Below, piece by piece: positions 2,295-21,588 of a DNA stretch of 24,000 bases. Origin of the DNA: an uncultured Bacteroidota bacterium (GTDB taxonomy: Bacteria > Bacteroidota > Bacteroidia > Chitinophagales > Chitinophagaceae); the NCBI GenBank assembly GCA_963811645.1, contig CAWERU010000003.1:251669-275668 (forward strand), given 5' to 3'. Position numbers and translations under genes: made by a program. Within the stretch, counting starts at the first letter, position 1. Every line of letters begins with the position of its first letter. The notes below the pieces were generated by a model. The model had not been told where the DNA came from. It ran no database searches and saw nothing but the letters and a program-made list of their open reading frames with translations.

Positions 2295-2299
2295 CCTCC
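2295..2299 (-). promoter_or_regulatory. Shine-Dalgarno-like GGAGG, 5 nt upstream of the atpF ATG
   Basis: Minus strand reads ...TTCCCtttaGGGAActGGAGGgttgtATG. A 5-bp hairpin (2302-2315) lies immediately upstream. Confidence 0.5.
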
Positions 2300-2476: not shown

Positions 2477-2507
2477 ATAAAACAGCAACCCCGTTTTATA
2501 GGGGTGC
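2477..2507 (-). terminator. Intrinsic-terminator-like or attenuator hairpin 12 nt after the atpE stop
   Basis: Minus-strand RNA reads GCACCCC-UAUAAAAC-GGGGUUGC, a 7-bp stem with a one-nt bulge, followed by UGUUUUAU. Confidence 0.4.
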
Positions 2508-2519
2508 AGTAACTCACTC

Positions 2520-2792
<273 letters not shown>

Positions 2793-3941: not shown

Positions 3942-3960
3942 AGGTTTCTGAAATTTGCCG

Positions 3961-3968
3961 CAAAGATA
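3961..3968 (-). promoter_or_regulatory. Candidate Bacteroidota -7 box TAtcTTTG for the atp operon
   Basis: Minus strand TATCTTTG lies 19 nt upstream of the atpB ATG. A TTTG (complement of 3991-3994) lies 22 nt further upstream, slightly longer than the usual spacer. Confidence 0.3.
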
Positions 3969-4024
3969 GGGAGCGGGGAGTGAAAAACATCAAAAGATGA
4001 AAGGAAAAGTTATTAGTTCCGGAC

Positions 4025-5875: not shown

Positions 5876-8095
5876 TTACTCTTCATTGCCCATCGCTTTT
5901 TTATAAGCCTTTATGAAAATAGCTCCAAGGTTTTTATATGGAGGAATATAATCCTCAAAGCCTTCCACTTTTACTCTTTTCTCCAATTCTTCCCAGAAAG
6001 GGATCCAGTCAATATCGTTTCCATTTCTTACTTTTTCCATTAACAAATTAAAGAAAGGTTGGTTTACTGCTGTTTTACCAATTTGTTTGGAAGTAATAAT
6101 ATGTGCATCGGGCGAATGTTCAAGGATATCATTAATTAAATAATAACCACCGCATGAGCCCATAAAAACAATTTTGGCAGATGGTAAAATCTGGTCAATG
6201 GTGTAAGGAGCATTATAACTATGTCCACGATGTATAACAACAGTTGGATATAAATTATTTCTCAATAAAAATGTATCCAGTGCATCCTGGGCCTTTTTGT
6301 CCTGGTCATCTTCTTCCGGCAAAGGAAGGTTTGCATAAATAGAAACCGGTTTGCCTTTTATAGAATTGATCGTGATCCAGTATTGTGAAGTAGTGATCCT
6401 CCATAGTTTTGGATCAAACATTCTTTTGAATCCCTGGAAAATTCCAATGCCATCTTTATCCCCATAAAAAAATACCTGCATTATCACCCTTCCTGTATCA
6501 TTTGCCAGAGCTTTAAAAGGAACTTCATATACAGGCGGTATTCCAAATTCTTTTGAAAGATTGATATGATTGCCTGTATCTGCTGAAAGAAAAAGTTTAT
6601 ACAGCAAATCATACATTACTATTCCCCGTTTATTATTGCTTATAAGATTACGTTGATAATTATTTTTTACGTTCAAAAGCATTCTGTCAGCAAGCGGCTT
6701 AATGGTCTCCACAATACTTGCATATGAATCGGCCACATCCACTCCGTCTTCAAGACCGCCTGATTCTTCCAGCTTACCCACAAAAGCTCTCATTAATTTT
6801 TCTGCATCCGATTCTCCACCCGGATTTTTAGCTGGTTGAAACGTGCTCAGAAAATCACTCAATGTGTTATACCCTGCACACATTTTAATAAACTTCCTGT
6901 ATTTATCAAATTTTACATTCATCAACAGGGAATCTCCATGATGATTGGCTCTCTCCATCATCAATGGGTACACTCCCTTTACGAAACTGGAAGTATAAAT
7001 AATGCCATCTGTGGTTACAGCCAGGTAATACAACTCTTCCGCTGTCAGGGGTTGAATGATCTTAAATCTTTTGGAAAGATCATCCAGTTCATGAAGTGAA
7101 TTAATGGTGTTGACAAATATATCAGTCGCCTTTCTTTTGATCCTGTCTTCAAGATCCCTGTACCCATAAGCCGTGTCTTTGTTGAGTGCTCTTTGTACAT
7201 AATCAAGGTGTGTTCTTACAAGCAACCGAAAATATCCCACACTATCATCTTTTACCGCATCTACATCACCAATGGTCATCTTCCCTTTCATGACCTCATC
7301 CAAAAAAGGAAAATACCAGCGGCCACTATTGCTCATGGCCATCTTTGATACAGCATTCACCAAAGGATCATTAATCTTACGGATAGCATAAGCAAGTTTA
7401 TTATTAGCGGCCGCAAAATCATATAATTGTCCCGGATCACGGTATCCGGCCACTATAATTAAACTGTCGAGGAAGGGGATATCTATATTATCTCTCAGTT
7501 TTAAAAAAATCCGGTCGGGGTATAGAGTACAATATTTTTTTAATAAAATATACTGGCAATTTTGGTACCCTTTATTCCGGTCAAAAATACCTGCATTTAT
7601 AAGATTCAATCCTACTTCATAAGGTTCATTATAAATGATATTATCAATTGATGCATTCATCATATCAGCTTGCATGCACTTTTCATATTCATCTATAATC
7701 TCCGGGAACAGTGTAGGGTTTATTGTGCCTCTCCGCCAGTTGTTATTAAAATATTTTAAAACATTCTCAAGCCCTCGTAAATACTTTACTTTACCCTGGG
7801 AACTTAATGTTGTATCCTTTTCAATCCGGTACTGAACCCAGTCAACATCCAGGGTAGCAGCACGGGTCAGGAAAAAATTGATTTGTTCATTATCCGATGG
7901 GCTGAATTGATTATCATTCTTACCATCAGATCTCAAAATCTCTTTTTGTTGTTTATCTACAAAATCATGAAACAGTTCACGGTTCTTGGGGGGCTTCAGG
8001 TCTCTCAACGGGTCGGGGTCCCTGGCCTGGGCAAGCAAGGGTTGAAATGAAAGCAGGCAATTAAGAACAACAAGATATCTGGAAATTGAAATCAT
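5876..8095 (-). CDS. Secreted 739-aa protein of unknown function with a C-terminal caspase/CHAT-like His...Cys module
   Basis: Long uninterrupted ORF with an ATG start and signal peptide MISISRYLVVLNCLLSFQPLLAQA. Its stop codon directly abuts the ABC exporter ORF. I recognise no family for the first ~600 aa. Confidence 0.7.
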   Translation of the reverse strand: MISISRYLVVLNCLLSFQPLLAQARDPDPLRDLKPPKNRELFHDFVDKQQKEILRSDGKNDNQFSPSDNEQINFFLTRAATLDVDWVQYRIEKDTTLSSQGKVKYLRGLENVLKYFNNNWRRGTINPTLFPEIIDEYEKCMQADMMNASIDNIIYNEPYEVGLNLINAGIFDRNKGYQNCQYILLKKYCTLYPDRIFLKLRDNIDIPFLDSLIIVAGYRDPGQLYDFAAANNKLAYAIRKINDPLVNAVSKMAMSNSGRWYFPFLDEVMKGKMTIGDVDAVKDDSVGYFRLLVRTHLDYVQRALNKDTAYGYRDLEDRIKRKATDIFVNTINSLHELDDLSKRFKIIQPLTAEELYYLAVTTDGIIYTSSFVKGVYPLMMERANHHGDSLLMNVKFDKYRKFIKMCAGYNTLSDFLSTFQPAKNPGGESDAEKLMRAFVGKLEESGGLEDGVDVADSYASIVETIKPLADRMLLNVKNNYQRNLISNNKRGIVMYDLLYKLFLSADTGNHINLSKEFGIPPVYEVPFKALANDTGRVIMQVFFYGDKDGIGIFQGFKRMFDPKLWRITTSQYWITINSIKGKPVSIYANLPLPEEDDQDKKAQDALDTFLLRNNLYPTVVIHRGHSYNAPYTIDQILPSAKIVFMGSCGGYYLINDILEHSPDAHIITSKQIGKTAVNQPFFNLLMEKVRNGNDIDWIPFWEELEKRVKVEGFEDYIPPYKNLGAIFIKAYKKAMGNEE

Positions 8096-8108
8096 AAGGA
8101 TCGTTTGA

Positions 8109-8116
8109 CAAATTTA
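8109..8116 (-). promoter_or_regulatory. Candidate -7 box TAaaTTTG for the 739-aa gene
   Basis: Minus strand TAAATTTG lies 13 nt upstream of the ATG at 8095. An upstream TTTG (complement of 8140-8143) follows a 23-nt spacer. Confidence 0.3.
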
Positions 8117-8297
8117 CTATCCCATCTCTGAATTACATACAAACCAATTTATTAAAGCAAAAAGACGGTTCTGTTGAAAGAATTGCTGGTTGTATAATGT
8201 TAAATTCTATTACGACCAAAAAATGTTTCCGTATTAATTTTTTATTAAGTCTATGTTATGCGATATAAGGCAATTTTCTTTAGAAATAATCTTCATG

Positions 8298-8305
8298 TAG
8301 GTTTG
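8298..8305 (+). promoter_or_regulatory. Candidate -7 box TAggTTTG for the response regulator
   Basis: TAGGTTTG lies 15 nt upstream of the ATG at 8321. I see no clear -33 TTTG. Confidence 0.3.
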
Positions 8306-8320
8306 CGCAAACAAAAAACA

Positions 8321-8998
8321 ATGGAAGCTAAGGCAAGAAAAGTTTTAATTGCCGATGATGAACCTGATATTCTGGAAATACTGAAATACAATCTAGTTAA
8401 CGAAGGTTACCAGGTAATAACTGCGAAAGATGGAGATGAAGCCATCGAAAAAGCAAAAATTTTTCAACCGGATCTTGTAGTGCTTGACATTATGATGCCA
8501 AAGAAAAGTGGGGTGCAGGTCTGTGAAATATTAAGAACTCAGTCCTCATTCCGAAATACATTAATTATTTTTTTAACTGCTTTAAATGATGAAATAACCC
8601 AGATAAGAGGGCTGGAAACAGGAGCGGATGATTATATAAGCAAACCCATCAGCCCTAAAGTTTTTATAAGCCGGGTAAATGCTCTTTTCAGAAGAGTCCC
8701 CAAAAAAGAAAATAAAACCTTACAGATAGACGGGCTCATCATTGATCCTGAAAAATTTGTGGTACAGCTTGAAGGAAAGGAAATTCTCCTTGCCAAAAAG
8801 GAATTTGAATTACTTCATTTGCTTGCTTCCCGGCCCGGACGGGTTTTTTTACGCAATGAAATTTTGAGCCAGGTGTGGGGCAATGATGTTATTGTAGGAG
8901 ATCGTACCATTGATGTACACATCCGAAAGATCCGTCAAAAATTGGGTGTAGACTGTATTACAACCGTAAAAGGAGTCGGCTATAAATTCGAATTATAG
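8321..8998 (+). CDS. OmpR/PhoB-family response regulator
   Basis: Receiver domain (KVLIADDEPDILE...VVLDIMMPKKSG...) followed by a winged-helix C-terminus (...TIDVHIRKIRQKL...VKGVGYKF). I prefer the ATG at 8321 over the track start at 8258. Confidence 0.9.
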   Translation: MEAKARKVLIADDEPDILEILKYNLVNEGYQVITAKDGDEAIEKAKIFQPDLVVLDIMMPKKSGVQVCEILRTQSSFRNTLIIFLTALNDEITQIRGLETGADDYISKPISPKVFISRVNALFRRVPKKENKTLQIDGLIIDPEKFVVQLEGKEILLAKKEFELLHLLASRPGRVFLRNEILSQVWGNDVIVGDRTIDVHIRKIRQKLGVDCITTVKGVGYKFEL

Positions 8999-9012
8999 AT
9001 TGCTTGTCTTCC

Positions 9013-9045
9013 GTTACTGGTAAAAAATAAACAGCAACCAGTAAC
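9013..9045 (+). other. 8-bp inverted repeat between the regulator and kinase genes
   Basis: GTTACTGG (9013-9020) and CCAGTAAC (9038-9045) are separated by a 17-nt A-rich loop. Confidence 0.3.
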
Positions 9046-9054
9046 TTGCAACAG

Positions 9055-10104
9055 ATGCTTAATACAAAAAACGTTTCTCCCCGTAAACTTTCTGCACTTA
9101 CAGCGTTGGTACTTAGTGTACCAATAAGTTTGGGTATTTATATTCTGCATCAAAGCTGGCAGGTATTAGTTATTTCATTTGCTATAATTTTTATTGGCAG
9201 TTATTTATTAATTGCTTTTACTCTTGAGAGCTTTATTTACAGAAAGATCAAGCTTATTTACAAATTCATTTACCAGACAAAAGCAAGTAAAAAAGAAGAA
9301 GTCTACTACCAGTATCTATTACCACAAAAAAGTATTGATGAAGTGAGAGAAGATGTAGAGAAATGGGCAGAAAAACAGGCAGAAGAAATTGAAATACTAA
9401 AAAGGAATGAACAATTCCGTAAAGAGTTTTTACAAAACCTTGCCCATGAATTTAAAACCCCCGTATTTGCTATACAAGGTTATGTAGATACATTATTGCA
9501 GGGAGCATTGGAAAACCCGGAAGTAAATCGCCCCTTCCTGGAAAAAACTTCAAGGAATATTGACCGATTGGTTAATCTCATAAATGACCTGGATGAAATT
9601 TCAAAACTGGAACGTGGTGAACAGGTAATCTATAAACAAAATTTTATTATACAGGATTTGATAAAGGAAGTTTTTGAAAGCCTTTCTATAAAAGCGGAAC
9701 AAAAAAATATTCGTTGCAGCATTAAAAAAGGATGCGAGTCGCCATTAGCAGTTTTTGCCGACAAAGAAAAGATCAGGCAGGTAGTATTAAATCTTGTTGA
9801 AAATTCTATCAAATACGGAAAGTTCGGAGGGAATATTACTGCCAGCATTTATATTACAGACGAAAAACATGTACTAGTTGAAATAAGTGATGATGGAATT
9901 GGCCTGGCTGAAAAACATCTGTCAAGAATTTTCGAACGCTTTTACAGAACAGATGAAGGTCGCAGTCTTGATATAACCGGTTCGGGTCTTGGTCTTGCTA
10001 TCTGTAAACATATTATCGAGGCACACGGGCAAACCATTCATGCACGTAGCACCGAACATATAGGAACGACTATTGGTTTTACTTTGGAGAGGAAGAAGGA
10101 ATAA
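9055..10104 (+). CDS. Sensor histidine kinase, PhoR-like catalytic core with no extracytoplasmic sensor domain
   Basis: Two TM helices separated by only HQSWQ, then a coiled-coil linker. H-box LAHEFKTP, N-box LVENSIKYG, G-boxes DDGIGL and GSGLGLAI. The track start at 9046 is TTG; the first ATG is at 9055. Confidence 0.9.
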   Translation: MLNTKNVSPRKLSALTALVLSVPISLGIYILHQSWQVLVISFAIIFIGSYLLIAFTLESFIYRKIKLIYKFIYQTKASKKEEVYYQYLLPQKSIDEVREDVEKWAEKQAEEIEILKRNEQFRKEFLQNLAHEFKTPVFAIQGYVDTLLQGALENPEVNRPFLEKTSRNIDRLVNLINDLDEISKLERGEQVIYKQNFIIQDLIKEVFESLSIKAEQKNIRCSIKKGCESPLAVFADKEKIRQVVLNLVENSIKYGKFGGNITASIYITDEKHVLVEISDDGIGLAEKHLSRIFERFYRTDEGRSLDITGSGLGLAICKHIIEAHGQTIHARSTEHIGTTIGFTLERKKE

Positions 10105-10135
10105 TGTTAATTAAATAAAACAAACATCATTCTAT

Positions 10136-11458
10136 TTGTCAGCATCTTCAACAAATCAACTAAAAAGAGCACTCTCACCTATCATGCTATGGGGGCTTGG
10201 AGTGGGTTACGTTATTTCCGGCATGTATTTCGGCTGGAACCTTGGATTGAAAGAAGGAGGAACATTAGGACTGGCCATTGCAACTTTTTTTATCATCATT
10301 CTATATGTTACGTTCACTTTTAGTTATACAGAACTGGCTTGCGCTATACCCAAAGCAGGAGGAGGATTCGATTATGCTAACCGTGCATTGGGGAAAGACT
10401 GGGGATTTATTGCCGGTATGGCTCAAAACATAGAATTTATCTTTGCTCCGCCGGCTATTGCATTTGCCATTGGCGCTTATTTCAATTTATTCTTCCCGCA
10501 GATACCCATTTTATTAATTGCCATTTTTAGTTATATTGTTTTTACAGCTTTGAATATTTATGGCGTTAAAGCTGCAGCTGTGTTTGAGTTGATAATTACT
10601 ATCCTGGCTGTATGTGAATTGTTATTATTTAGCGGTATTACTCTTCCACATTTTGAATTAAAAAATTTACAGCATAATGCTTTCCCAAATGGCTGGGCCG
10701 GCGCATTTGCCGCCACTCCTTTTGCTATCTGGTTTTTCCTGGCGATTGAAGGAGTTGCCAACGTAGCCGAAGAAGCTATCAATCCTCAGCGAACCATGTT
10801 GCTTGGTTTCGGTTCGGCTATTTTGACTTTGGTTATTCTGTGTGTTCTTACTTTTATCAGTTCAGTCGGGGTAGCGGGATGGGAAGCCATTGTTTATAAA
10901 AGTAATGGTGATACTTCTGATTCTCCATTGCCTTTGGCATTAAGTCATATCGTGGGTAATAATAATACCATGTACCATTTGCTTATAACTATAGGGCTGT
11001 TTGGGTTGATCGCATCTTTTCACGGAATCATTCTGGCTGCAGGAAGAGCAAGCTTTGAATTTGGAAGAGTAGGTTTTGCCCCTGCGCTTTTAAAAAATAT
11101 TCATCCAAAATTTCAAACACCGTCAAATGCATTATTGGTCAATATGGCAATCGGCATTATCGCTTTACTGACAGGCAAAACGGCTGAGATCATTACTATT
11201 TCTGTATTTGGCGCATTGACACTATATGTTATATCCATGATAGCTTTGTTACGGCTTAGAAAAAAAGAACCGAAATTGGAACGGCCCTTTAAAGTACCTA
11301 TGTATCCAATATTTCCGGTGGTCGCATTGATGATCGGTATTTTTTCATTTGTGGTGATGACAATCTATAACTTTAAGCTGGCATTGATATATTTTCTAAT
11401 CATAGGCATTTGTTATGGAGCATTCAAGTTGTTTGCAGTAAAGAATTTAAATAATTAG
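10136..11458 (+). CDS. APC-superfamily permease, ethanolamine permease (Eat/EutP)-like
   Basis: About 12 TM helices. Motifs LKRALSPIMLWGLGVGYVISGMYFGWNLG and AGGGFDYANRALG...IEFIFAPPAIAFAIGAY match what I recall of the Eat family. The start is TTG; the first ATG (10184) would remove the conserved N-terminus. Confidence 0.75.
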   Translation: MSASSTNQLKRALSPIMLWGLGVGYVISGMYFGWNLGLKEGGTLGLAIATFFIIILYVTFTFSYTELACAIPKAGGGFDYANRALGKDWGFIAGMAQNIEFIFAPPAIAFAIGAYFNLFFPQIPILLIAIFSYIVFTALNIYGVKAAAVFELIITILAVCELLLFSGITLPHFELKNLQHNAFPNGWAGAFAATPFAIWFFLAIEGVANVAEEAINPQRTMLLGFGSAILTLVILCVLTFISSVGVAGWEAIVYKSNGDTSDSPLPLALSHIVGNNNTMYHLLITIGLFGLIASFHGIILAAGRASFEFGRVGFAPALLKNIHPKFQTPSNALLVNMAIGIIALLTGKTAEIITISVFGALTLYVISMIALLRLRKKEPKLERPFKVPMYPIFPVVALMIGIFSFVVMTIYNFKLALIYFLIIGICYGAFKLFAVKNLNN

Positions 11459-11480
11459 TATTTTTTATCCAATATAAAAT

Positions 11481-12839
11481 ATGACTACAAAAGAAATTAT
11501 TCAGTATGTAAAAGATCACCCTTCGGGAAAAGTAAAAATTGCTTTCAGTGATATTGATGGAATATTAAGAGGTAAATATATTTCTGCTGAAAAATTTCTT
11601 TCTGTCATAGAAAATGGTTTAGGATTTTGTGATGTAATTTTTGGATGGGATGCAGGTGATGTGTTGTACGATGATATAAAATATACCGGGTGGCATACCG
11701 GTTATCCTGATTGCCCCGCAGTTTTAGACATCAATACATTCAGAAAAATTCCCTGGGAAAATGATGTGCCTTTTTTTCTTGGCGAATTAAAGGATGATAA
11801 AGGAAATCCTTCTGTGGTTTGCCCGAGACAATTGCTGAAAAAAATAATAGCCCAGGCTGGCGAGCAGGGCTTTTCCCCCTTCTTCTCGCAGGAATTTGAA
11901 TGGTACAATTTTGCAGAAACGCCGCAAACGGCTAATGAAAAGCAATTCAAAAATCTCACTCCGCTTGCTCCGGGCATGTTTGGCTATTCCATTCTTCGCA
12001 GCTCTTTAGAAAACTTTTACTTCACCGATTTATTTGAAAGTCTGAAAAAGTTTGATGTACCGTTGGAAGGATTACATACTGAAACAGGGCCGGGTACCTA
12101 TGAAGCAGCGATCGTTTATGCCGATATCTTAGAAGCTGCAGACCGTGCCATTCTTTTTAAAACCGCAGTAAAAGAAATTGCATATAAGCACGGCATCATG
12201 GCCACCTTTATGGCGAAGATCAATGAAAATCTTCCCGGTTGCGGTGGGCATGTTCATCAAAGTTTATGGGACAAAGCAGGAAAGAAAAATCTTTTCTATA
12301 ATGAAAAAGATAAAATGAAGATGAGTGAAGTAATGAAAAGTTATGTGGCTGGACAATTATATTGTTTACCATATATTCTTCCCATGTTTGCCCCTACTAT
12401 CAATAGTTATAAAAGACTCGTAGAAGGAGCCTGGGCGCCTACTACACTTACATGGGCAACAGATAACAGAACAGTTGCACTCAGAATATTATCCGGCAGC
12501 AGCAAATCATGCCGTCTTGAAACAAGAGTGATCGGATCAGATGTAAATCCATATTTAGCCATGGCAGGTTGCTTGGCTGCAGGTTTATATGGCATAAAAA
12601 ACAAATTGAAATTAAAACAACCCGCTACTGTTGGAAACGGTTACAAAGACTATTCAATTGGCGTTCTGCCTTCTACATTAATAGAAGCGGCTCACCTAAT
12701 GAAAACTTCCAAAGTTGCCAAAGAACTTTTCGGAGAAAAATTTGTTGAACACTTTACTCTTACAAGAGAATGGGAATGGAAGCAACATTTGAAAGCAGTA
12801 ACAGACTGGGAATACAAACGATATTTTGAAATTATTTGA
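11481..12839 (+). CDS. Glutamine-synthetase-like gamma-glutamyl-amine ligase (PuuA/GlnA4/IpuC-like)
   Basis: 452 aa with a GS beta-grasp N-domain and a catalytic domain carrying ...LHTETGPGTYE..., ...GCGGHVHQSLW..., ...INSYKRL... and ...NRTVALR...ETRVIGSDVNPYLA. Confidence 0.85.
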   Translation: MTTKEIIQYVKDHPSGKVKIAFSDIDGILRGKYISAEKFLSVIENGLGFCDVIFGWDAGDVLYDDIKYTGWHTGYPDCPAVLDINTFRKIPWENDVPFFLGELKDDKGNPSVVCPRQLLKKIIAQAGEQGFSPFFSQEFEWYNFAETPQTANEKQFKNLTPLAPGMFGYSILRSSLENFYFTDLFESLKKFDVPLEGLHTETGPGTYEAAIVYADILEAADRAILFKTAVKEIAYKHGIMATFMAKINENLPGCGGHVHQSLWDKAGKKNLFYNEKDKMKMSEVMKSYVAGQLYCLPYILPMFAPTINSYKRLVEGAWAPTTLTWATDNRTVALRILSGSSKSCRLETRVIGSDVNPYLAMAGCLAAGLYGIKNKLKLKQPATVGNGYKDYSIGVLPSTLIEAAHLMKTSKVAKELFGEKFVEHFTLTREWEWKQHLKAVTDWEYKRYFEII

Positions 12840-12988
12840 AGGCCAAAAACAAAAATCAAAAACCAATCTCCAAATAAATCATAAACAATAAAATAAAAAA
12901 ATTAAGCCGTTTGTTTTCATAACTTGAATTTAGAATTTGGGGTTATTTATTTGGTTCTTGCTATTTGCAATTTGAATTTTAATCACCT

Positions 12989-14137
12989 ATGACCTTCGAT
13001 AAGATCTATCAATATAACTTTCCGACAACAATTCGTTTTGGTGCAGGTTCAAGCAAAGAGCTGGGTGATTATTTATTAAAAAATAATTTATCAAATCCAT
13101 TAATAGTTACTGATAACACAATTGCTCAATTAAGTTTTTTTAAAGAGATCATCAATAATCTGAAAAAGAAAAATATTTCTGCAGAAATATTTTCAAACAT
13201 TCATAAAAACCCGGTAAAATCGGATGTATACAAAGGCACAGATGTTTATGATAATACTCAAAGAGATTCTGTTATAGGCATTGGCGGCGGTGCCGCACTG
13301 GATGTGGCCAGGGCGATCGTATTAAGAGTAAATCACCGGGAGGATCTTTTTAAATATGATGACCTCATTGGTGGAGATATATATGTAACGAACGATGTTC
13401 CGCATTTTATTACAATTCCTACAACCGCAGGCACAGGAAGCGAAGTCGGTCGCAGTGCAATTATTGCCGATGATGAAACTCATCAAAAGAAAATTCTTTT
13501 TTCTCCCAAACTATTGGCAAAAATCGTTTTTGCCGATCCCTCATTAACCATGGAACTTCCTCCGTTTATTACAGCTGCTACCGGTATGGATGCTTTGACA
13601 CATAATATGGAAGCTTATTTGGCAAAAATGCCACATCCTTTATGTGAAGGAATTGCACTGGAAGGAATTTCATTGATCAGTCAATCACTGGAGAAAGCGG
13701 TTAACGATCCGGATATAGAATCAAGGAGCAAAATGCTGATCGCTTCATTAATGGGCGCAGTGGCTTTCCAAAAAGGCCTGGGAGTGGTGCATTCACTGGC
13801 ACATCCTTTATCATCCCTGCTCGATACACATCATGGCCTGGCCAATGCAGTAAATATTCCTTATGGAATGGAATTCAATATTGAAGGATTTGAAAATAAA
13901 TTCAAACACATTGCCCGAACACTGGAGCTGAAAGAAGAAACAGGTGAAACCGTTGTAAACTATTTATTTGATTTGAATTCAAAGATCAATATCCCGCATA
14001 AATTAAGAGACATTGCAGTAAAACCTGAACACATTGAGACTCTTGCTGATCTTGCCATTGCTGATTTTGCTCATCCAAATAATCCAAAACCGGTAACCCG
14101 TGAAGATTTCAGAAATTTGTACAGCAAAGCACTTTAA
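12989..14137 (+). CDS. Iron-containing (group III) alcohol dehydrogenase
   Basis: GIGGGAALDVARA NAD-binding motif, TIPTTAGTGSEV, and metal-ligand histidines in DALTHNMEAY, VVHSLAHP and HHGLANA. Confidence 0.9.
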   Translation: MTFDKIYQYNFPTTIRFGAGSSKELGDYLLKNNLSNPLIVTDNTIAQLSFFKEIINNLKKKNISAEIFSNIHKNPVKSDVYKGTDVYDNTQRDSVIGIGGGAALDVARAIVLRVNHREDLFKYDDLIGGDIYVTNDVPHFITIPTTAGTGSEVGRSAIIADDETHQKKILFSPKLLAKIVFADPSLTMELPPFITAATGMDALTHNMEAYLAKMPHPLCEGIALEGISLISQSLEKAVNDPDIESRSKMLIASLMGAVAFQKGLGVVHSLAHPLSSLLDTHHGLANAVNIPYGMEFNIEGFENKFKHIARTLELKEETGETVVNYLFDLNSKINIPHKLRDIAVKPEHIETLADLAIADFAHPNNPKPVTREDFRNLYSKAL

Positions 14138-14140
14138 CCT

Positions 14141-16222
14141 ATGCAGAAAAAAATCGGTATCAGCTTTACTAAATCATCTTTTCAGAATTACTGGAATTGG
14201 TTTACATCAGAAGACTTGCTTGACGACTTAGAATTGATCGAACTAAATTTTGAAAAAAACAACACCGAAGATATCTATAAATGTGATGGCTTTATTCTCA
14301 CAGGTGGTGAGGATACTCACCCTTCTTTTTACAATGGAAAAACAATTTATAATAACAACCCTTCTTCATTCCAGATTGAACGTGATTTTTTTGAAGAAAA
14401 AATTTACCGTTATTCCCAATTAAACAATTTGCCTGTTCTTGGAATTTGCCGGGGTATGCAACTGGTAAATGTATTACAAGGAGGTAAACTGATACAGGAT
14501 CTTGACAGTGGTAACGAAAGACACAAAAAAGAAGAATCGGATAAGGAACATACAATTGTTGCTGAGAACAATAGCATGCTTTATAAAATAACAGGTTCTC
14601 TTTCAGGTCATGTAAACAGTGCCCATCACCAGGCAATTGATCCTGGTGCAATTGGCGATAATTTGATTGTGAACGCTTATGATGACGATGATGAAAAGAT
14701 CATTGAAGGACTTGAATTCAGGAACAAAACCGGTAAAGCTTTCATGCTTTGCGTGCAATGGCACCCCGAAAGAATGAAAGACAAAGAAGAAAATCCATTT
14801 TCTCAAAACCTGAAAAAACAATTCCTCGAAGCAATCAGGGCAACATCTATGAAAAAACTTTCCGTCACTAACCCGGCTACGGAAGAAATAATTGCAGAGT
14901 TGAATGAAGACACAAAAGAAACTCTGCAAAAAAAAATTGAATCTCTGAAGGCTTCACAAATAAGTTGGCAGAAACAAGTACTTAAAGAAAGAGTGGATAT
15001 AATTAAAAAATTTTCTGATCTCTTAGAAAAAAACATCGAACAACTTACCTTGGTTTTAACTTCGGAAGTCGGGAAGCCTTTACAGCAATCCCGCAATGAA
15101 ATAAATGGTGCAAGGGCAAGAATAAAATGGCTTTCTGAAAATTCCGAGAAATATTTGTCAGATGAGATCATGAGTCATTCAAATGGAATGGAAGAAAAAA
15201 TTTCTTATGAACCGCTTGGAATTGTTTGCAATATATCTGCATGGAACTATCCTTACCTGGTTGGTGTAAATGTTTTTGTTCCGGCTTTGCTCGCCGGAAA
15301 TGCTGTGATGTATAAGCCTTCAGAACATTCAACATTAACGGCTTTGCAAATAGAAAAACTGTTGAAGCAAGCCGGTGTGCCGGAAAATATTTTCCATGTG
15401 GCCATAGGAGCAAAAGAAACAGGTGAGTTGTTATTAGAAATTCCGTTTGATGGATACTTCTTCACCGGTTCTTATAAAACAGGAAAATACATCTATCAAA
15501 AAGTAGCGCCAAAAATGATTCCTTGCCAATGCGAATTAGGCGGTAAGGATCCTTTATACGTAGCCGATGATGTAAAAGATATTAAAGCTGTTGCAGCCGG
15601 TACTGCTGACGGAGCTTTTTATAATAACGGGCAAAGCTGCTGTTCAGTAGAAAGGATCTACGTTCATGAAAAAACTTATGATCAGTACATTGACGAATTT
15701 ATAAAGGAAGTAAAGTCATGGAAGATCGGGTCACCAACAGAAGAAGGAATGTATATCGGTCCGTTGAGCAGAAAAGAACAAGTAACGGTTCTGGAAAAAC
15801 AAGTTGAAGATGCAATCAGTAAAGGAGCAATGATTTTAACAGGCGGAAAAAAAGTAAATGGTACCGGATATTTTTTTGAACCAACTGTTCTTGTAAATGT
15901 AAATCACACTATGAGTGTAATGACCGATGAATCGTTTGGGCCGATCATCGGTATTATGAAAGTGAAAGATGACAATGAAGCGATAGAACTGATGAAGGAT
16001 ACGGAATATGGTTTGACGGCTTCTGTTTATAGTTCAGATAGAGAAAGAGCAGAAAACATTTTACAACAAATAAATACCGGAACGGGTTACTGGAATTGCT
16101 GCGACAGGGTAAGTGCGGCCCTGCCATGGAGTGGAAGAAAACATTCGGGATTCGGTGTTACACTTTCTTCTGCAGGTTTACGAGCATTTGTGAAACCAAA
16201 AGGATACCATTTGAGAGGATGA
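14141..16222 (+). CDS. Bifunctional fusion: N-terminal peptidase-C26/PuuD-type gamma-glutamyl hydrolase plus C-terminal NAD(P) aldehyde dehydrogenase
   Basis: Residues 1-~235 carry GICRGMQ (nucleophile Cys) and CVQWHPE (His/Glu). From Met237 (ATG 14849), MKKLSVTNPATEEII begins a full ALDH with ELGGKDP (15533-15553) and GQSCCSVER (15629-15655). One uninterrupted frame, starting 3 nt after the ADH stop. Confidence 0.9.
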   Translation: MQKKIGISFTKSSFQNYWNWFTSEDLLDDLELIELNFEKNNTEDIYKCDGFILTGGEDTHPSFYNGKTIYNNNPSSFQIERDFFEEKIYRYSQLNNLPVLGICRGMQLVNVLQGGKLIQDLDSGNERHKKEESDKEHTIVAENNSMLYKITGSLSGHVNSAHHQAIDPGAIGDNLIVNAYDDDDEKIIEGLEFRNKTGKAFMLCVQWHPERMKDKEENPFSQNLKKQFLEAIRATSMKKLSVTNPATEEIIAELNEDTKETLQKKIESLKASQISWQKQVLKERVDIIKKFSDLLEKNIEQLTLVLTSEVGKPLQQSRNEINGARARIKWLSENSEKYLSDEIMSHSNGMEEKISYEPLGIVCNISAWNYPYLVGVNVFVPALLAGNAVMYKPSEHSTLTALQIEKLLKQAGVPENIFHVAIGAKETGELLLEIPFDGYFFTGSYKTGKYIYQKVAPKMIPCQCELGGKDPLYVADDVKDIKAVAAGTADGAFYNNGQSCCSVERIYVHEKTYDQYIDEFIKEVKSWKIGSPTEEGMYIGPLSRKEQVTVLEKQVEDAISKGAMILTGGKKVNGTGYFFEPTVLVNVNHTMSVMTDESFGPIIGIMKVKDDNEAIELMKDTEYGLTASVYSSDRERAENILQQINTGTGYWNCCDRVSAALPWSGRKHSGFGVTLSSAGLRAFVKPKGYHLRG

Positions 16223-16224
16223 TT

Positions 16225-17328
16225 TTACTTTTTTTCTTGCTCATAGTCCAGTATCTTTTGACCATTCTCATTGTAAATTTTTTTTAATGTTGTATCGGGT
16301 AATGAAAGCCCATACAAGGGCCAATGATAATTGAACATGTCCTGCTCATAAAAATGTTCATCAGCAGTTTCAAGAATTCGAAACGTGACAAGGTACATTT
16401 TTTTTGATGTGCCCATATCTGTACCATATACGATCCTGTTCGAATATTTTTCCATGAAATCATGAACATACCGGGGAATAGGGGCGATCTCACCATACCG
16501 TGCAGCGATATCAGCATACAGGTTAGGGTATTTATCAAACAATCTTCCCAGCCTGCTGAGATCTGAACAACAGTTTGCAAGATGACAGGCAATGAAAATT
16601 GTCTTAGGATTATTTTTTACCGCATTTTCCAATGTTATGATCAGTTGGTCGTGATCAAGGATTCCATTTTTGCTCATATCTACCTTCCACGTGGCCGCAT
16701 TCATTAATCCATCATTTGTAGAATCTGCATCTTGATACATCCATGCATCCTCAGCAACATGTATGCTTACCGGCATATGCAGTTCTGCGCATTTTTCAAG
16801 CAAGGGTTTCATTTGCGGATCATCAATATGCATGCCCCATCCCGTCGTTGGTTTGGAATAAAATTCTCCTAATCCTTTATCACCCAGCTCTCCCACCCCT
16901 CTTGCCCCTTTTTTGTAACATCTTTCCAGTTCTGCAATTGCATGCTGTTGCCAGCCATTTTTATCATACCCTGTATAATCAAAACCACACCAGATCTCAA
17001 ACCGGCCTTTATAACGTTCATATTTTTCAACAACAGAATCAAACTTTGTACCTGTGGAGTAGGAAAGGATAATTATTTTTGCAATCCCCAGTTCATCCAT
17101 TGTTTTAACCCATTCATCCACTTCCCGATCTGATTTTGGATAATCATGAGAATGAAAATCAATCACCGGATATTTTGCCTTTTCAATTCTTGTAACAGGT
17201 ATTTTATAAATAGAAACAGGATGAAAGTCTTTTAATCTCAGATCATTTACATTCTGGCAAACTGCCGTTACAGCAAAAGTTTGCAAAACAAAAAGTAAAA
17301 GCGGGTAAGAAGTATATATTTGTTTCAT
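16225..17328 (-). CDS. Secreted metal-dependent amidohydrolase (TIM-barrel, amidohydrolase_2-like)
   Basis: Signal peptide (…FAVTAVCQ), an HxH motif (VIDFHSHD) and later His/Asp motifs (VSIHVAED, ACHLAN, YGTDMG). Confidence 0.75.
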   Translation of the reverse strand: MKQIYTSYPLLLFVLQTFAVTAVCQNVNDLRLKDFHPVSIYKIPVTRIEKAKYPVIDFHSHDYPKSDREVDEWVKTMDELGIAKIIILSYSTGTKFDSVVEKYERYKGRFEIWCGFDYTGYDKNGWQQHAIAELERCYKKGARGVGELGDKGLGEFYSKPTTGWGMHIDDPQMKPLLEKCAELHMPVSIHVAEDAWMYQDADSTNDGLMNAATWKVDMSKNGILDHDQLIITLENAVKNNPKTIFIACHLANCCSDLSRLGRLFDKYPNLYADIAARYGEIAPIPRYVHDFMEKYSNRIVYGTDMGTSKKMYLVTFRILETADEHFYEQDMFNYHWPLYGLSLPDTTLKKIYNENGQKILDYEQEKK

Positions 17329-17360
17329 AAAAAATTACTAATTGTCTTTTCGGCATTGCA

Positions 17361-17368
17361 CAAATTTA
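17361..17368 (-). promoter_or_regulatory. Candidate -7 box TAaaTTTG for the amidohydrolase gene
   Basis: Minus strand TAAATTTG lies 32 nt upstream of the ATG at 17328. Confidence 0.3.
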
Positions 17369-17510
17369 ATTCTGCAATTTGGTTTGCGAACCTGGTCTCA
17401 CAAGAAAAACCTTAACAAAGGCGGCTTAATATACAAACAATAGATAATCTATCTTCAAATGTCGTCTACTGTCTTCCCTTTTTAAAAAACAATTATTATA
17501 TTAACAGGTA

Positions 17511-19430
17511 ATGATTCCCTCGAAACCAATCACAATCCTGTGTTTTATATATAGCAAAATTTGCTACCTGATCTTATTTCACGTATCAGTTTTGGGTTTC
17601 CTTTTTACTATTGCCCAAACGAACATCAGTGGTGTTGTAAACAGTTATTATAAAGTAGTGGAGATTATTCCCGGCAAGGCTTGTGTAAGGCTAAATAACG
17701 TTACAGGCCTGGCCCGGTTACAAAAAACATTACTTATACAAATGAAAGGGGCCTCTGTTACTACTTCCAACAACAGCAGCTTTGGTGATACAACTTCGCT
17801 TAATAATGCCGGCAACTATGAAATTGCTATTATTTGTGCGATAGATGGTGATTCGGTTTTTATGTTTCATAATTTTTTGAACAATTATACCGTTGCTGAT
17901 AAAGTGCAACTGGTAAAATTTGCTGAATATTATTCTGCCAACGTTATTGATACAATAAAAGCTTCCCCCTGGAATAATACAATCGGTACAGGCGGAGTGA
18001 TTGCTATAAGTGTTTCCCAGGACTTAATATTAAATGCTCCCGTTTATGCAGATTCTTCTGGTTTCAGGGGAGGTGGTTATATATTAAGTAATGGAACATG
18101 TTTTAATGCCCCCCTTGATGCCACAAATTATTTTTATAACGCTTCTTCTGTTACCCCACAAAATGGTGCTTACAAAGGTGAGAGTGTTTATGATTTTCCC
18201 GCATCGCAAAGTGGTGGACGAGGTGCACCGGCAAATGGCGGAGGCGGAGGAAATAATCATAATAACGGTGGCGGAGGTGGTGCCAATTTAAGTGTGGGAG
18301 GAAATGGTGGCGGCAATTCCAGCAGCGCCGGCTGCAGGGGTGATTTGCATGGGGAAGCTGGCAAGGCACTCAAAAACTGGAATGGTGAAAAGATGTTTTT
18401 TGGCGGAGGTGGAGGTGCTGGTCATTCAAACGGAACACTCACTATTTCCAATGGTGGTGGCAATGGCGGAGGTATTATTTTTATCCATGCGGAAACCCTT
18501 ATTGGCAATGGATATAAAATATCAGCTAATGGAGGAGAAGGAGGGACTGCAGTTTCCGATGGAGCCTCAGGTGGAGGTGCAGCTGGTTCTGTCATCATGG
18601 ATATAAGCACCTATTCCGGTTCTGTAACTATACAAGCGAACGGCGGTAAAGGAGGGAATGAAAATGATGCAGGCACTCTACAAAGATGTTATGGTGCAGG
18701 TGGCGGCGGTAGCGGTGGTGTTATTTATTTTACAGCATCGATACCTGCTGTTTCAATTTCAGTTACCGGTGGAACTGCTGGTTCAGAATATGGAGGAGAC
18801 CCCGCATGTAATGCAGCCATACCGGCTGCCAGTGGTTCTGATGGCAGTACAATTTCTTCTTATCTCATTCGGCAATCAACCGATTCTGCATCATATTGCA
18901 TTTCGATTGCTCCTTTATCAGTAAGATTGATATATTTCAAAGCTGTGCCTGGTCAATCGAATATTCAATTGCAATGGGCGGTATCAAATCCCGAATTATC
19001 CATGGAGTTTATACCCGAAAAAATAATTGCTGATAACTGGTATCCTCTTCATGCAATACAGGCTGATGATCTGAAACAAGACTATATTTATACAGATGAA
19101 CACCCGGAACAAGGATTGAATTTTTACAGGCTTAAGATCATTGAAAAAAATAATTCTTTTTTTTATTCCCCCGTTCGGCAATTAAACGGAAATCAAAAGA
19201 GTAACCCATTTGTTCTTTATCCCAACCCTGCCTCTCAGCAGGTTATTGTTACAGGTAATTTTTCTTCTTTTACCGAAATAAAATTGTTTGACCTCTCCGG
19301 CAAATTAATATGGTATAAAAAAATAGCGGGCAGCAATGAAAGTATATCTATTGATCTCTCTTTGCTGCAGGCAGGAGTATATGCATTGCAAATTGACAAC
19401 GTTATAAAAAAACTTATTATCTGCAAATAA
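17511..19430 (+). CDS. T9SS-secreted glycine-rich repeat protein
   Basis: N-terminal hydrophobic signal region. The central region (~18050-18810) is dominated by GGxGG and polyglycine runs alternating with short beta-like segments (GGGIIFIHAETL, AAGSVIMDIS, SGGVIYFTAS). A beta-sandwich-like domain with the YRLK motif follows. The C-terminal 75 aa (19203-19427), NPFVLYPNPA...LFDLSGKLI...LLQAGVYALQI, form a type-A Por secretion tail. Confidence 0.85.
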   Translation: MIPSKPITILCFIYSKICYLILFHVSVLGFLFTIAQTNISGVVNSYYKVVEIIPGKACVRLNNVTGLARLQKTLLIQMKGASVTTSNNSSFGDTTSLNNAGNYEIAIICAIDGDSVFMFHNFLNNYTVADKVQLVKFAEYYSANVIDTIKASPWNNTIGTGGVIAISVSQDLILNAPVYADSSGFRGGGYILSNGTCFNAPLDATNYFYNASSVTPQNGAYKGESVYDFPASQSGGRGAPANGGGGGNNHNNGGGGGANLSVGGNGGGNSSSAGCRGDLHGEAGKALKNWNGEKMFFGGGGGAGHSNGTLTISNGGGNGGGIIFIHAETLIGNGYKISANGGEGGTAVSDGASGGGAAGSVIMDISTYSGSVTIQANGGKGGNENDAGTLQRCYGAGGGGSGGVIYFTASIPAVSISVTGGTAGSEYGGDPACNAAIPAASGSDGSTISSYLIRQSTDSASYCISIAPLSVRLIYFKAVPGQSNIQLQWAVSNPELSMEFIPEKIIADNWYPLHAIQADDLKQDYIYTDEHPEQGLNFYRLKIIEKNNSFFYSPVRQLNGNQKSNPFVLYPNPASQQVIVTGNFSSFTEIKLFDLSGKLIWYKKIAGSNESISIDLSLLQAGVYALQIDNVIKKLIICK

Positions 19431-19498: not shown

Positions 19499-20596
19499 TT
19501 ATCTCAACGTAATTGCAGGTGCAATAGATTTGTCAGATTGAAAATTTTCTCCTACCAAACTGGCAATGGTCTGTGCAATTTGTTTCTGATAAATCTGTTC
19601 CTCATTTTTTATTTCGCCAAGAGGTTTAATATTGGGACCGATAAGTGCCAGCCAGGTTTGGGATGATCCACTTATAAACAATCCATGACTTGTCCATTTG
19701 GAAGAAGCTTTTCCTCTTCCGTGATCAGTAGTAATAATAAATGTGGTTTTGTCTTTATACCCCGGCGAAGATTGAACCCAATGCCAGAGTTCTGATATCA
19801 TTTTATCAATTTCTGCTGCTTTTTCAAGATAAAGATCATACTTGCCCTGATGAGCCATTTCATCTGTTTCACCAAAACCCAGGTAAACTATTTTCGGTTG
19901 AAATTTACGAACATACTCCTCCGCTGTAATAAATGTAAGCTCATCCTGTCTTGTTTCAGTTTTATTGTATACGGCATCATTTTCCACCTTATTGATCAGG
20001 CTTTGCTCCGCATTATCTTCTTCCATATTTTCATAACCGCTATTCATTTCAATCTTGCTTCTTTCTTTATTTAAAATATATGGAAACACATCCCATGAAG
20101 TAAACGCCACTACGTTGCCTCTATAATCAGTTTGTTGATTCAGGTATTCAAGCACATTTACATTTGGGTTTTCCCTTTTATTATTTGATGCAATAGTGAT
20201 ATCCGTTTTGCCGGTAAACATTTCATTATACCCCGGGTAAGAGAGAGAATAAAAATTTGAAACATTCATTTTGTTATTGAAATGACGGTTGCCGTATACT
20301 TGTCCTTTTTTAGCAAGCACATTCCAAAAGAAAGGCATTAGCTTCTTTCTTCTTTCGTCCGCATCAGGAGCCCAATACATCATTTTCATGGTTGAAGTAT
20401 CAGCAGTGTATTTCTCATTATTTATTAATAAAGAATCTGCCCCGGTAAAAACTTCCTGCCAGCGAAAGCCATCAATTGTAATAATGAAAAGATTTTGAAC
20501 TGGTCGGATCTGAGAAGAAATATCCTGTTGATTTGTCGGTTTTTCAGGAGCCCGCAAACATACTGCCAGTATAATGCAGGCGAACAAATGTTTCAT
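19499..20596 (-). CDS. Alkaline-phosphatase-superfamily enzyme, nucleotide pyrophosphatase/phosphodiesterase (NPP)-like, secreted
   Basis: Motifs ITIDGFRWQE, YSLSYPGYNEMFTG (nucleophile position), GETDEMAHQG and ITTDHGRG. I prefer the ATG at 20596 (MKHLFACIILAV...) over the TTG at 20614. Confidence 0.7.
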   Translation of the reverse strand: MKHLFACIILAVCLRAPEKPTNQQDISSQIRPVQNLFIITIDGFRWQEVFTGADSLLINNEKYTADTSTMKMMYWAPDADERRKKLMPFFWNVLAKKGQVYGNRHFNNKMNVSNFYSLSYPGYNEMFTGKTDITIASNNKRENPNVNVLEYLNQQTDYRGNVVAFTSWDVFPYILNKERSKIEMNSGYENMEEDNAEQSLINKVENDAVYNKTETRQDELTFITAEEYVRKFQPKIVYLGFGETDEMAHQGKYDLYLEKAAEIDKMISELWHWVQSSPGYKDKTTFIITTDHGRGKASSKWTSHGLFISGSSQTWLALIGPNIKPLGEIKNEEQIYQKQIAQTIASLVGENFQSDKSIAPAITLR

Positions 20597-20748
20597 TGTG
20601 TAACGGTTTTGCAAAAAAAGAAAGTCAATGTAACTGAACTGTTATCTGAGCATTATTTTAATGTTAGATAAAAATTGATAATGATTTGTTCATGTTGTAG
20701 TAACATACGGATTAAATATGTTGATAAATTTTGCAAAACTTTCCGCCC

Positions 20749-21588
20749 ATGCAAAAACGCTCTATTGATGTCGCCGTACTCTCGGACCTCCATTTGGGTA
20801 CGTATGGTTGCCGTGCCAAGGAAATTGTCACTTACCTTAAAAGTATCAGTCCGCAAATTCTGATCCTGAATGGAGACATCATTGATATCTGGCAATTCAG
20901 CAAACATTATTTTCCTCCCACACACGTAGCCGTGATTAAAGAAATACTTAACCTGATGACCTCCGGTGCAAGGGTAATTTATGTTACAGGCAATCATGAT
21001 GAAATGCTTCGCCGCTACAGTGAGCTGCAGTTAGGGCAATTTCAGCTTATAGACAAACTGGTGATCGAGATCGATCATAAAATGACCTGGATGTTTCACG
21101 GTGATGTGTTTGATAATACAACAAAAGGCAGTGCGAAGTTCTGGGCAAAGATGGGAAGCAACGGCTACGCCTTGCTGCTTGCATTCAATCGTTTTATTAA
21201 TAAGCTGATGAAACTTATCGGGAAGGAAAAAATTTCTCTTTCGAAACGAGTGATGAAGAAAGTAAATGAATCTATTGTCAAGATTAATGAGTTCGAAACA
21301 CTGGTAGCAGAACTGGCTATTGAAAAAAAATATAATTACGTGATATGCGGACATATTCATCAACCGCAAAAGAGAGTGATCAGTAATAAAGAGGGAAGTG
21401 TAGTTTACCTGAATTCAGGGGATTGGATTGAACACCTGACGTCTTTGGAATATTATGGCGGCGACTGGCACATTTATAAATATGAAGAATCGGAAATGAA
21501 AACTATCAATATAAAAGAAATGAAACGACGTACGACTGATGTAATGACTGACCAGATCGCGATCTATCTGCATTCTTTAGGAGCATAG
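20749..21588 (+). CDS. LpxH-family calcineurin-like metallophosphoesterase (UDP-2,3-diacylglucosamine diphosphatase-like)
   Basis: Motifs SDLHLG, NGDIIDIW, TGNHDE, FHGD and CGHIHQP, with an inserted helical lid between them. I prefer the ATG at 20749 over the TTG at 20731. Confidence 0.7.
   Translation: MQKRSIDVAVLSDLHLGTYGCRAKEIVTYLKSISPQILILNGDIIDIWQFSKHYFPPTHVAVIKEILNLMTSGARVIYVTGNHDEMLRRYSELQLGQFQLIDKLVIEIDHKMTWMFHGDVFDNTTKGSAKFWAKMGSNGYALLLAFNRFINKLMKLIGKEKISLSKRVMKKVNESIVKINEFETLVAELAIEKKYNYVICGHIHQPQKRVISNKEGSVVYLNSGDWIEHLTSLEYYGGDWHIYKYEESEMKTINIKEMKRRTTDVMTDQIAIYLHSLGA

Follow-up and report, generated by a model that had tools for sequence, protein, structure and literature searches.

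We analysed a stretch of 24,000 nt from an uncultured soil bacterium of the Bacteroidota, family Chitinophagaceae (contig CAWERU010000003.1, positions 251,669 to 275,668; this whole stretch is called the window) and found a compact set of four genes on the + strand, which encode an Eat-like permease, a glutamine synthetase (GS)-like ligase, an iron-containing alcohol dehydrogenase (Fe-ADH) and a PuuD-type hydrolase fused with an aldehyde dehydrogenase (ALDH). The module probably imports ethanolamine and converts it to glycine via gamma-glutamyl intermediates, with no need for B12 or a compartment. The oxidation of gamma-glutamylated amino alcohols in general, which comprises ethanolamine and other amino alcohols, is predicted with high confidence. 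The features of the module are listed below (GATase, glutamine amidotransferase).

10136 to 11458, + strand: Eat-family permease (APC, TC 2.A.3.5-type), TIGR00908; predicted ethanolamine uptake
11481 to 12839, + strand: GS-like ATP-dependent ligase, Gln-synt_C; predicted glutamate-ethanolamine ligase (gamma-glutamylethanolamide synthetase)
12840 to 12988, no strand: A-rich intergenic gap (149 nt) that separates the ligase and ADH genes; may hold an internal promoter
12989 to 14137, + strand: iron-containing (group III) alcohol dehydrogenase, Fe-ADH and ADH_Fe_C; predicted gamma-glutamylethanolamide dehydrogenase
14141 to 14848, + strand: PuuD-type peptidase C26/class-I GATase domain, fusion residues 1 to 236, Peptidase_C26; predicted gamma-glutamylglycine hydrolase
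14849 to 16222, + strand: aldehyde dehydrogenase domain, fusion residues 237 to 693, Aldedh; predicted gamma-glutamylaminoacetaldehyde dehydrogenase

The proteins were assigned to families by Pfam and NCBIfam profile searches with curated cut-offs, for which the open reading frames (ORFs) of at least 80 amino acids in the window were scanned. These searches returned the same four families as the original prediction for this locus, and the coordinates of the + strand ORFs (10136 to 11458, 11481 to 12839, 12989 to 14137 and 14141 to 16222) reproduced its four same-strand genes with gaps of 22, 149 and 3 nt. It had also reported the absence of eutBC and microcompartment genes, which held: no eutB, eutC or microcompartment shell gene was present among the scanned ORFs of the window. 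The catalytic residues were intact in alignments of the ligase, the Fe-ADH, the C26 domain and the ALDH domain. Public annotation gives the ligase as 'glutamine synthetase' and lists the fusion gene product as 'aldehyde dehydrogenase family protein'.

In the proposed route, the Eat permease would import ethanolamine, and the ligase would join it to glutamate at the expense of ATP to give gamma-glutamylethanolamide. The Fe-ADH would oxidise the free hydroxyl of this amide to gamma-glutamylaminoacetaldehyde, which the ALDH domain would oxidise further to gamma-glutamylglycine. The fused C26 domain would finally hydrolyse gamma-glutamylglycine to glycine and glutamate, the latter being recycled. 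The net reaction would be ethanolamine + ATP + 2 NAD(P)+ -> glycine + ADP + Pi + 2 NAD(P)H, and the amine would be masked as a gamma-glutamyl amide throughout the oxidation. All the computational tests that we ran agree with the gamma-glutamylation-dependent amino-alcohol pathway put forward originally, as seen in the ligase residues, the invariant Fe-ADH and the Eat permease.

The ligase lacks the residues for ammonium chemistry

The ligase matched Gln-synt_C (PF00120) with 319 bits but reached the cut-off of no curated GS or PuuA model. It scored 232 bits against the 429-bit cut-off of the type I GS model, was also below the cut-off for type III GS, and reached 214 bits with the PuuA model NF045547, of which the cut-off is 650. 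For the comparison of residues, GlnA of E. coli and a set of GS-like ligases were aligned with it. All residues for the two metals, ATP and glutamate are kept (E138, E140, E201, E208, H257, H259, R312, R330, R335, E347 and R349, equivalent to E129, E131, E212, E220, H269, H271, R321, R339, R344, E357 and R359 of GS). Relative to GS, W318 stands in place of the flap glutamate E327, F167 in place of Y179, P252 in place of N264 and K67 in place of S53, while the column of D50 lies within the poorly aligned N-terminal region and is uninterpretable. As judged from the alignment, the glutamate-activation machinery is present and the residues required for ammonium chemistry (E327, Y179 and N264) are replaced. 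For PauA7 and GlnA4, a role as amine and not ammonia ligases has been argued from the absence of E327 and Y179 (PMC6529630). The predicted activity of the window ligase is ATP-dependent gamma-glutamylation of an organic amine.

The nearest named ligase was the IpuC homologue of Paenarthrobacter aurescens TC1 (40% identity). Identity was 43 to 46% with uncharacterised proteobacterial ligases, and 32 to 37% with ligases of the eto type (PDB 5dm3 and 11zs, Ruegeria, Paracoccus), which belong to the ethanolamine operons of Proteobacteria compared below. The PDB entry 5dm3, presumably Csal_0679, was 75.8% identical to the Ruegeria eto-type ligase, which places it in the eto ligase family. In a neighbour-joining tree, the four eto-type ligases formed a clade with 100% bootstrap support and the window ligase was outside it; the window clade joined the proteobacterial clade and IpuC with 89%. 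The original prediction had called for such a placement, and the tree puts the ligase on the IpuC side and outside the eto clade. The window ligase is not orthologous to the characterised ethanolamine ligases.

The permease and the dehydrogenase point to an amino alcohol

The permease belongs to AA_permease_2 (Pfam) and passed the NCBIfam model TIGR00908, 'ethanolamine permease', with 438 bits against the curated cut-off of 381.75; the runner-up model gave 154 bits. It was 45 to 47% identical to 'eat' genes on plasmids and only 21% identical to PuuP. Among six nearest plasmid homologues whose contexts were examined, five are adjoined by eutBC (in Azospirillum, Moraxella, Pararhizobium, Thioclava and C. 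butyricum), and the sixth, in Paraburkholderia, has a primary-amine oxidase in place of eutBC beside it. In Thermomicrobium, an eat gene occurs together with a GS-like ligase and a short-chain dehydrogenase, which gives circumstantial support. The permease is assigned as an Eat orthologue on the strength of this homology. Its start, TTG at 10136, is merely the first possible start codon.

We assign ethanolamine as the probable substrate mainly because the permease passes the curated model and its homologues adjoin eutBC in five of the six contexts. That the substrate would be an alcohol rather than a second amine is suggested by the Fe-ADH, which is the aldehyde-forming partner in every locus, and by the co-variation of the transporter. 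Among loci with ligases of the window clade, Fe-ADH is paired with an Eat-like permease in Photobacterium and Flavobacteriaceae and with an Eat-like or other secondary permease in Legionella, whereas an aminotransferase is paired with a polyamine (spermidine/putrescine) ABC transporter in Rhodobacteraceae M382 and Pseudorhizobium.

The ADH has the nucleotide motif GGGA at residue 99, and its D201, H205, H268 and H282 align with the iron ligands of FucO, which we take to be D196, H200, H263 and H277. No curated model assigned the ADH or the ALDH at the NCBIfam cut-offs. In the NCBIfam rankings, the ADH resembled that of the Ruegeria eto operon, with 4-hydroxybutyrate dehydrogenase as the common top model, and the ALDH resembled the eto-operon ALDH, with PRK09407 as the common top model. 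The ADH was 36 to 40% identical to the eto and Legionella ADHs.

A hydrolase and an aldehyde dehydrogenase are fused in one lineage

The fusion gene is an uninterrupted ORF of 693 amino acids, in which Peptidase_C26 (PF07722, 138 bits) was matched at residues 45 to 210 and Aldedh (PF00171, 430 bits) at residues 235 to 687. The triad C103, H208 and E210 of the C26 domain aligns with the PuuD motifs 'CRG' and 'WHPE', and the domain was 38.5% identical to the GATase of the TC1 ipu cluster. The ALDH domain has the conserved N369 (oxyanion), E465 (general base) and C500 (catalytic). Its motifs ELGGKDPxYV and GQ(S/C)CCxxERIY are common to eto-operon and other GS-linked ALDHs and absent from PuuC, and it scored 239 bits with the PuuC model NF007352 (cut-off 850). 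A PDB sequence search with the ADH and the fusion returned generic Fe-ADH/ALDH relatives only and no solved structure of the fusion.

The junction keeps the ancestral start of the ALDH, M237 in 'MKKLSVTNPATEE', so the fusion is likely to have arisen by recent loss of the stop codon between adjacent genes for consecutive steps. It would unite the last two steps of the route in one polypeptide. Single-ORF fusions were found only in 18 loci of one Chitinophagaceae subgroup. In Pedobacter, Cytophagales and Bacteriovoracaceae, the C26 protein (~238 to 250 amino acids) and the ALDH (~454 amino acids) are encoded by separate adjacent genes. The fusion described in the original prediction is thus real in the window, and it is a feature of this subgroup and not of the other carriers.

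The module is conserved in related genomes

Species-representative genomes were scanned with the fusion protein, which gave 80 loci. The permease, ligase, ADH, C26 and ALDH units were in the same order within 5.6 to 7.6 kb in 55 of the 80, and contig ends cut most of the others. The module is carried by Chitinophagaceae, many Pedobacter species, Cytophagales and three metagenome-assembled genomes (MAGs) of Bacteriovoracaceae. Cultured carriers include Pedobacter, Terrimonas pollutisoli and Chitinophaga terrae (L014, L030 and L064). The flanking genes are unrelated between genera (PaaA, LacI, LysR, DUF4349, a pyridoxal-phosphate enzyme, a TonB receptor), and no recurrent regulator or extra pathway gene was found in the flanks of 20 diverse loci. 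Therefore the conserved unit is just the five-unit module. The arrangement is far beyond chance, because the order is kept in 55 of 80 loci, which come from four bacterial families and have unrelated flanks. Fe-ADH is an invariant partner, and the conserved module includes no amine oxidase or aminotransferase.

In Pedobacter, the genes of the module overlap by ATGA or are spaced by 15 to 40 nt, and the gap between ligase and ADH ranges from ~35 nt to ~1 kb among the relatives. In three loci (L005, L006 and L010), the gaps among the permease, ligase and ADH genes are widened to 0.3 to 1 kb, compared with 22 and 149 nt in the window. A Cytophagales MAG (L019) has two extra ORFs of 183 and 181 amino acids between ligase and ADH (7593 to 8144 and 8282 to 8827), which had no NCBIfam match. 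The MAGs of the predatory Bacteriovoracaceae (L066, L067 and L074) carry a module of the Bacteroidota type, and their ligase nests with that of Terrimonas (87% bootstrap); it is likely that they gained the module by horizontal transfer. Another locus (L058), labelled Beijerinckiaceae, encodes proteins 68 to 82% identical to those of the window, and is probably a misbinned contig or another case of transfer.

A variant in Flavobacteriaceae has the order SusC-SusD-permease-ligase-ALDH-ADH-GATase, followed by a phospholipase C catalytic domain of the PlcH/PlcN type (13524 to 15044 in L078 and 13578 to 15077 in L079; TIGR03396, 488 bits, covering only the first 388 of 688 model positions). The phospholipase C on the 3' side gives circumstantial support for ethanolamine and points to phospholipid head groups as the source. 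In both loci, the genes of the SusC/SusD pair are directly 5' of the permease on the same strand (~1630 to 6730). In 12 Pedobacter loci (L034, L036, L037, L039, L044, L045, L047, L049, L052, L054, L055 and L057), a SusC-like TonB-dependent receptor and a SusD-like lipoprotein are likewise encoded directly 5' of the permease on the same strand (~1450 to 6080).

Alternative substrates and pathways

Several observations weigh against ethanolamine as the substrate. The ligase groups with IpuC and uncharacterised proteobacterial ligases and not with the eto type (32 to 37% identity), and since it is outside the eto clade, its orthology lends no support to ethanolamine. At the position of Y179, the window ligase has Phe and the eto-type ligases have Glu or Gln, so that the amine pocket may differ between them. 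The ADH and ALDH are just 34 to 40% identical to the eto enzymes. The SusC/SusD pairs upstream of the module in Pedobacter and Flavobacteriaceae are odd for an amine of 61 Da; they suggest prior import of a larger head-group compound through SusC/SusD. Literature searches found no experimental data for any member of the Bacteroidota. The same chemistry could act on another primary amino alcohol, namely 3-aminopropanol, 4-aminobutanol, 5-aminopentanol, alaninol or serinol, with beta-alanine, gamma-aminobutyrate and the like as products. The clustering of the ligase with IpuC-type and uncharacterised ligases fits such a substrate, the Phe suggests a more hydrophobic pocket, and the ADH and ALDH are assigned by no curated model. 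IpuC accepts several amines and amino alcohols. We nevertheless consider another amino alcohol unlikely: the permease scores above the equivalog cut-off for ethanolamine permeases and its nearest homologues mostly adjoin eutBC, the Flavobacteriaceae variant of the module is accompanied by phospholipase C, and no other free amino alcohol is nearly as abundant in soil and membranes as ethanolamine.

Catabolism of a polyamine (putrescine or cadaverine) by a Puu-like pathway would also employ a GS-like ligase, a PuuD-type C26 hydrolase and an ALDH, as do E. coli puuA, puuD and puuC, and some ligases of the same clade are encoded beside aminotransferases and polyamine ABC transporters. It is very improbable here, since Fe-ADH is invariant, no PuuB-type oxidase or aminotransferase is present in the scanned ORFs of the window or in the conserved module, and the ligase (214 bits, PuuA cut-off 650), the ALDH (239 bits, PuuC cut-off 850) and the permease (21% identity with PuuP) are all remote from their Puu counterparts. 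An Ipu-type catabolism or detoxification, in which a short alkylamine is glutamylated, hydroxylated elsewhere and then oxidised by the ADH and ALDH, would suit the identity of the ligase (40%) and the C26 domain (38.5%) with the TC1 IpuC homologue and the GATase of that cluster. This possibility is similarly slight: the TC1 ipu cluster includes P450, ferredoxin and ferredoxin-reductase genes, whereas none was present in the window or the related loci, and the transporter is of the Eat type. The generic public annotations would agree with a genuine GS that lies beside unrelated dehydrogenases by chance. The replacement of E327, Y179 and N264 and the score of 232 bits against the 429-bit type I cut-off argue against a true GS, and the order kept across families, with overlapping stop and start codons and two of the enzymes fused, argues against a chance neighbourhood, which is hardly credible. 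Catabolism of ethanolamine is thus the reading that we prefer.

Regulation and neighbouring genes

A two-component system is encoded directly upstream of the module.

8258 to 8998, + strand: OmpR/PhoB-family response regulator, Response_reg and Trans_reg_C; possible lineage-specific regulator of the module
9046 to 10104, + strand: histidine kinase, HisKA and HATPase_c; stop codon 31 nt 5' of the permease

The histidine kinase has two adjacent hydrophobic segments near its N-terminus but lacks a recognised sensor domain, and the response regulator was below every curated NCBIfam cut-off. Among the relatives, only the three closest (L001, L005 and L010) have the system (8258 to 10104) upstream of their module, and it may be at most a lineage-specific regulator, through which expression of the module could be controlled in this lineage. 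The unit of four genes in the original prediction stands, and in this lineage the two-component system may also belong to it. Homology of the response regulator starts only at about residue 26, and just upstream of ATG 8321, at 8298 to 8305, there is a -7 motif of the Bacteroidetes type, TAGGTTTG. This ATG is probably the start of the gene instead of 8258.

In a search for the Bacteroidetes -7 motif TAnnTTTG, neither the gap in front of the permease nor that in front of the ADH contained a site; the motif was under-represented overall, and the match at 8298 was the sole useful one. A scan of 8000 to 17600 for sigma-70 promoters and terminators was set aside, as the sites were no commoner than in shuffled sequence and the consensus is unsuited to Bacteroidota. 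The 149-nt gap, which may hold an internal promoter, had no Rfam match and its fold was no better than that of shuffled sequence (z = 0.75). No tRNA or Rfam match was found in the window, and these searches and the unstructured gap gave no sign of a riboswitch or other RNA element.

On the 3' side, the gene of an Amidohydro_2 protein (16225 to 17328, - strand), which matched no curated family, converges on the fusion gene with a gap of 2 nt. It was not counted in the module because it is linked in L003 and L005 only. It is followed by the gene of a type IX secretion cargo protein (17511 to 19430, + strand, Por_Secre_tail), of which the N-terminal 400 residues resemble the gliding-motility protein AgmC; the local G+C content here is 0.455, compared with ~0.36 elsewhere. 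Further downstream are genes for an alkaline-phosphatase-superfamily protein (19499 to 20614, - strand), which had no match in NCBIfam or the PDB, an LpxH-like calcineurin phosphoesterase (20731 to 21588, + strand) and a glycosyltransferase (21626 to 22651, + strand). These three genes stay near the module in L001, L002, L005 and L024, with different intervening genes. Their link to hydrolysis of phosphorylated head groups is speculative.

On the 5' side, an ORF of 739 amino acids with no Pfam or NCBIfam match (5876 to 8095, - strand) abuts the gene of an MsbA-like ABC exporter (4025 to 5875, - strand) with zero gap. This ORF is kept in L001, where it has two tandem copies, and in L005 and L010. 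The F-type ATP synthase genes atpB, atpE, atpF and atpH (1208 to 3941, - strand) provide a housekeeping context.

Implications for the prediction of ethanolamine use

Ethanolamine derived from phosphatidylethanolamine is a major source of nitrogen and carbon in soil, water and hosts. The prediction of ethanolamine users from genomes leans almost wholly on eutBC, which needs cobalamin, and lately also on the TRAP-linked eto operon of Proteobacteria. We tentatively propose, with somewhat less than even confidence, that the module represents a second gamma-glutamyl ethanolamine route, independently assembled from an IpuC-side ligase, a GATase/C26 hydrolase and an Eat permease in soil and freshwater Bacteroidota and some Bacteriovoracaceae, with a related form in Flavobacteriaceae, Legionella and Photobacterium. 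In some lineages, it would be wired to SusC/SusD and phospholipase C, that is, it would form the end of phospholipid head-group scavenging and permit B12-independent use of ethanolamine. If the module works as predicted, present annotation would overlook many ethanolamine users among the Chitinophagaceae, Sphingobacteriaceae and Cytophagales, and gamma-glutamyl protection would have arisen at least twice by assembly of non-orthologous parts. The fusion of hydrolase and ALDH that occurs naturally here could then be used to study the coupling of the last two steps.

Comparison with known systems

For Proteobacteria, the gamma-glutamyl ethanolamine route has already been published in full, and for Streptomyces its first step (PMC10132767, PMC6529630, PMC9397018). 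The full route is reported to have been demonstrated in Chromohalobacter and Agrobacterium. The novelty implied by the original prediction is reduced accordingly. Its statement that such a locus is uncharacterised in Bacteroidota fits our literature searches, which found no study of this locus type in the phylum. The chemistry is already known; the novelty lies in the phylum, in the clade of the ligase, in the family of the hydrolase, in the transporter and in the fusion of the two final enzymes, which is specific to one lineage.

The Phaeobacter eto operon comprises genes for an RpiR regulator, the TRAP transporter EtoVWX and four enzymes, namely an ethanolamine gamma-glutamylase, a gamma-glutamylethanolamide dehydrogenase, a gamma-glutamylacetaldehydeamide dehydrogenase and a gamma-glutamylglycine amidohydrolase, and its proteins were induced on phosphoethanolamine (PMC10132767). 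The gamma-glutamylase is MED193_10046. A Ruegeria plasmid carries genes for RpiR, N-formylglutamate amidohydrolase, three TRAP components, a GS-like ligase, an ALDH and an Fe-ADH, which matches the Phaeobacter operon. The window shares with eto the same four chemical steps, the superfamilies of the GS-like ligase, the Fe-ADH and the ALDH, and the lack of B12, EutBC and a microcompartment; both dehydrogenase partners of the eto operon are present in the window, adjacent and on the same strand. The two systems differ in uptake (TRAP in eto and an Eat permease of the APC type in the window), in the hydrolase (N-formylglutamate-amidohydrolase family and C26/GATase, respectively) and in the RpiR-type regulator of eto. 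In addition, eto has no fusion, belongs to another phylum, and has a ligase in a separate clade (100% bootstrap), to which the window ligase is 32 to 37% identical. On a plasmid of Paracoccus pantotrophus (L087, 8094 to 16074), an eto-type hydrolase-ligase-ALDH-ADH set is located immediately 5' of bhcBCD of the beta-hydroxyaspartate cycle, into which glycine or glyoxylate derived from ethanolamine may be fed.

GlnA4 (SCO1613) of Streptomyces coelicolor glutamylates ethanolamine, and the later steps were predicted for SCO1611-1615 (PMC6529630; reviewed in PMC9397018). GlnA4 and the window ligase both keep the residues for metal, ATP and glutamate and have both lost Y179 and E327, the latter being Phe in GlnA4 and Trp in the window. 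In both cases, the predicted later steps are those of a dehydrogenase, an ALDH and a hydrolase. The systems differ in the hydrolase, for which Streptomyces has the predicted SCO1615 of the formylglutamate-amidohydrolase type, and the experiments in Streptomyces cover the first step only.

The Puu pathway of E. coli (puuP, puuA, puuD, puuC and puuB) has the same logic of gamma-glutamyl protection, formation of the aldehyde and the acid, and C26 hydrolysis with a Cys-His-Glu triad. Its substrate is a diamine and the aldehyde is formed by the FAD oxidase PuuB, whereas a predicted NAD-dependent Fe-ADH would act on an alcohol in the window. The window proteins are 21 to 31% identical to PuuP, PuuA, PuuD and PuuC and far below the curated cut-offs. 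The Ipu system of Pseudomonas sp. KIE171, with homologues on plasmids of P. aurescens TC1 (PMC1713258), has a ligase on the same side of the tree and a GATase-type gamma-glutamyl hydrolase. It differs by a P450 system that hydroxylates the glutamylated alkylamine, the genes for which are absent from the window.

The clusters of ligase, ALDH, Fe-ADH and GATase genes in Legionella lytica (on a plasmid), Photobacterium sp. GJ3 and DA100 and Flavobacteriaceae MAGs share the ligase clade (43 to 46% identity), the four activities and a GATase-type hydrolase with the window, and those of Photobacterium GJ3 and Flavobacteriaceae also share the Eat-like permease. They differ in the order (ligase-ALDH-ADH-GATase), in a more GuaA-like GATase and in the lack of fusion, and none is characterised. 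The plasmid pKVP1 of Streptomyces viridifaciens (L092, 4508 to 10260) encodes an APC permease, a GS-like ligase of the eto super-clade, a PuuD-type hydrolase, an ALDH and a short-chain dehydrogenase/reductase, and the converse pairing, a ligase of the window clade with a formylglutamate amidohydrolase, is found in Rhodobacteraceae M382. Thus, ligase clades and hydrolase families have been mixed and matched among these systems.

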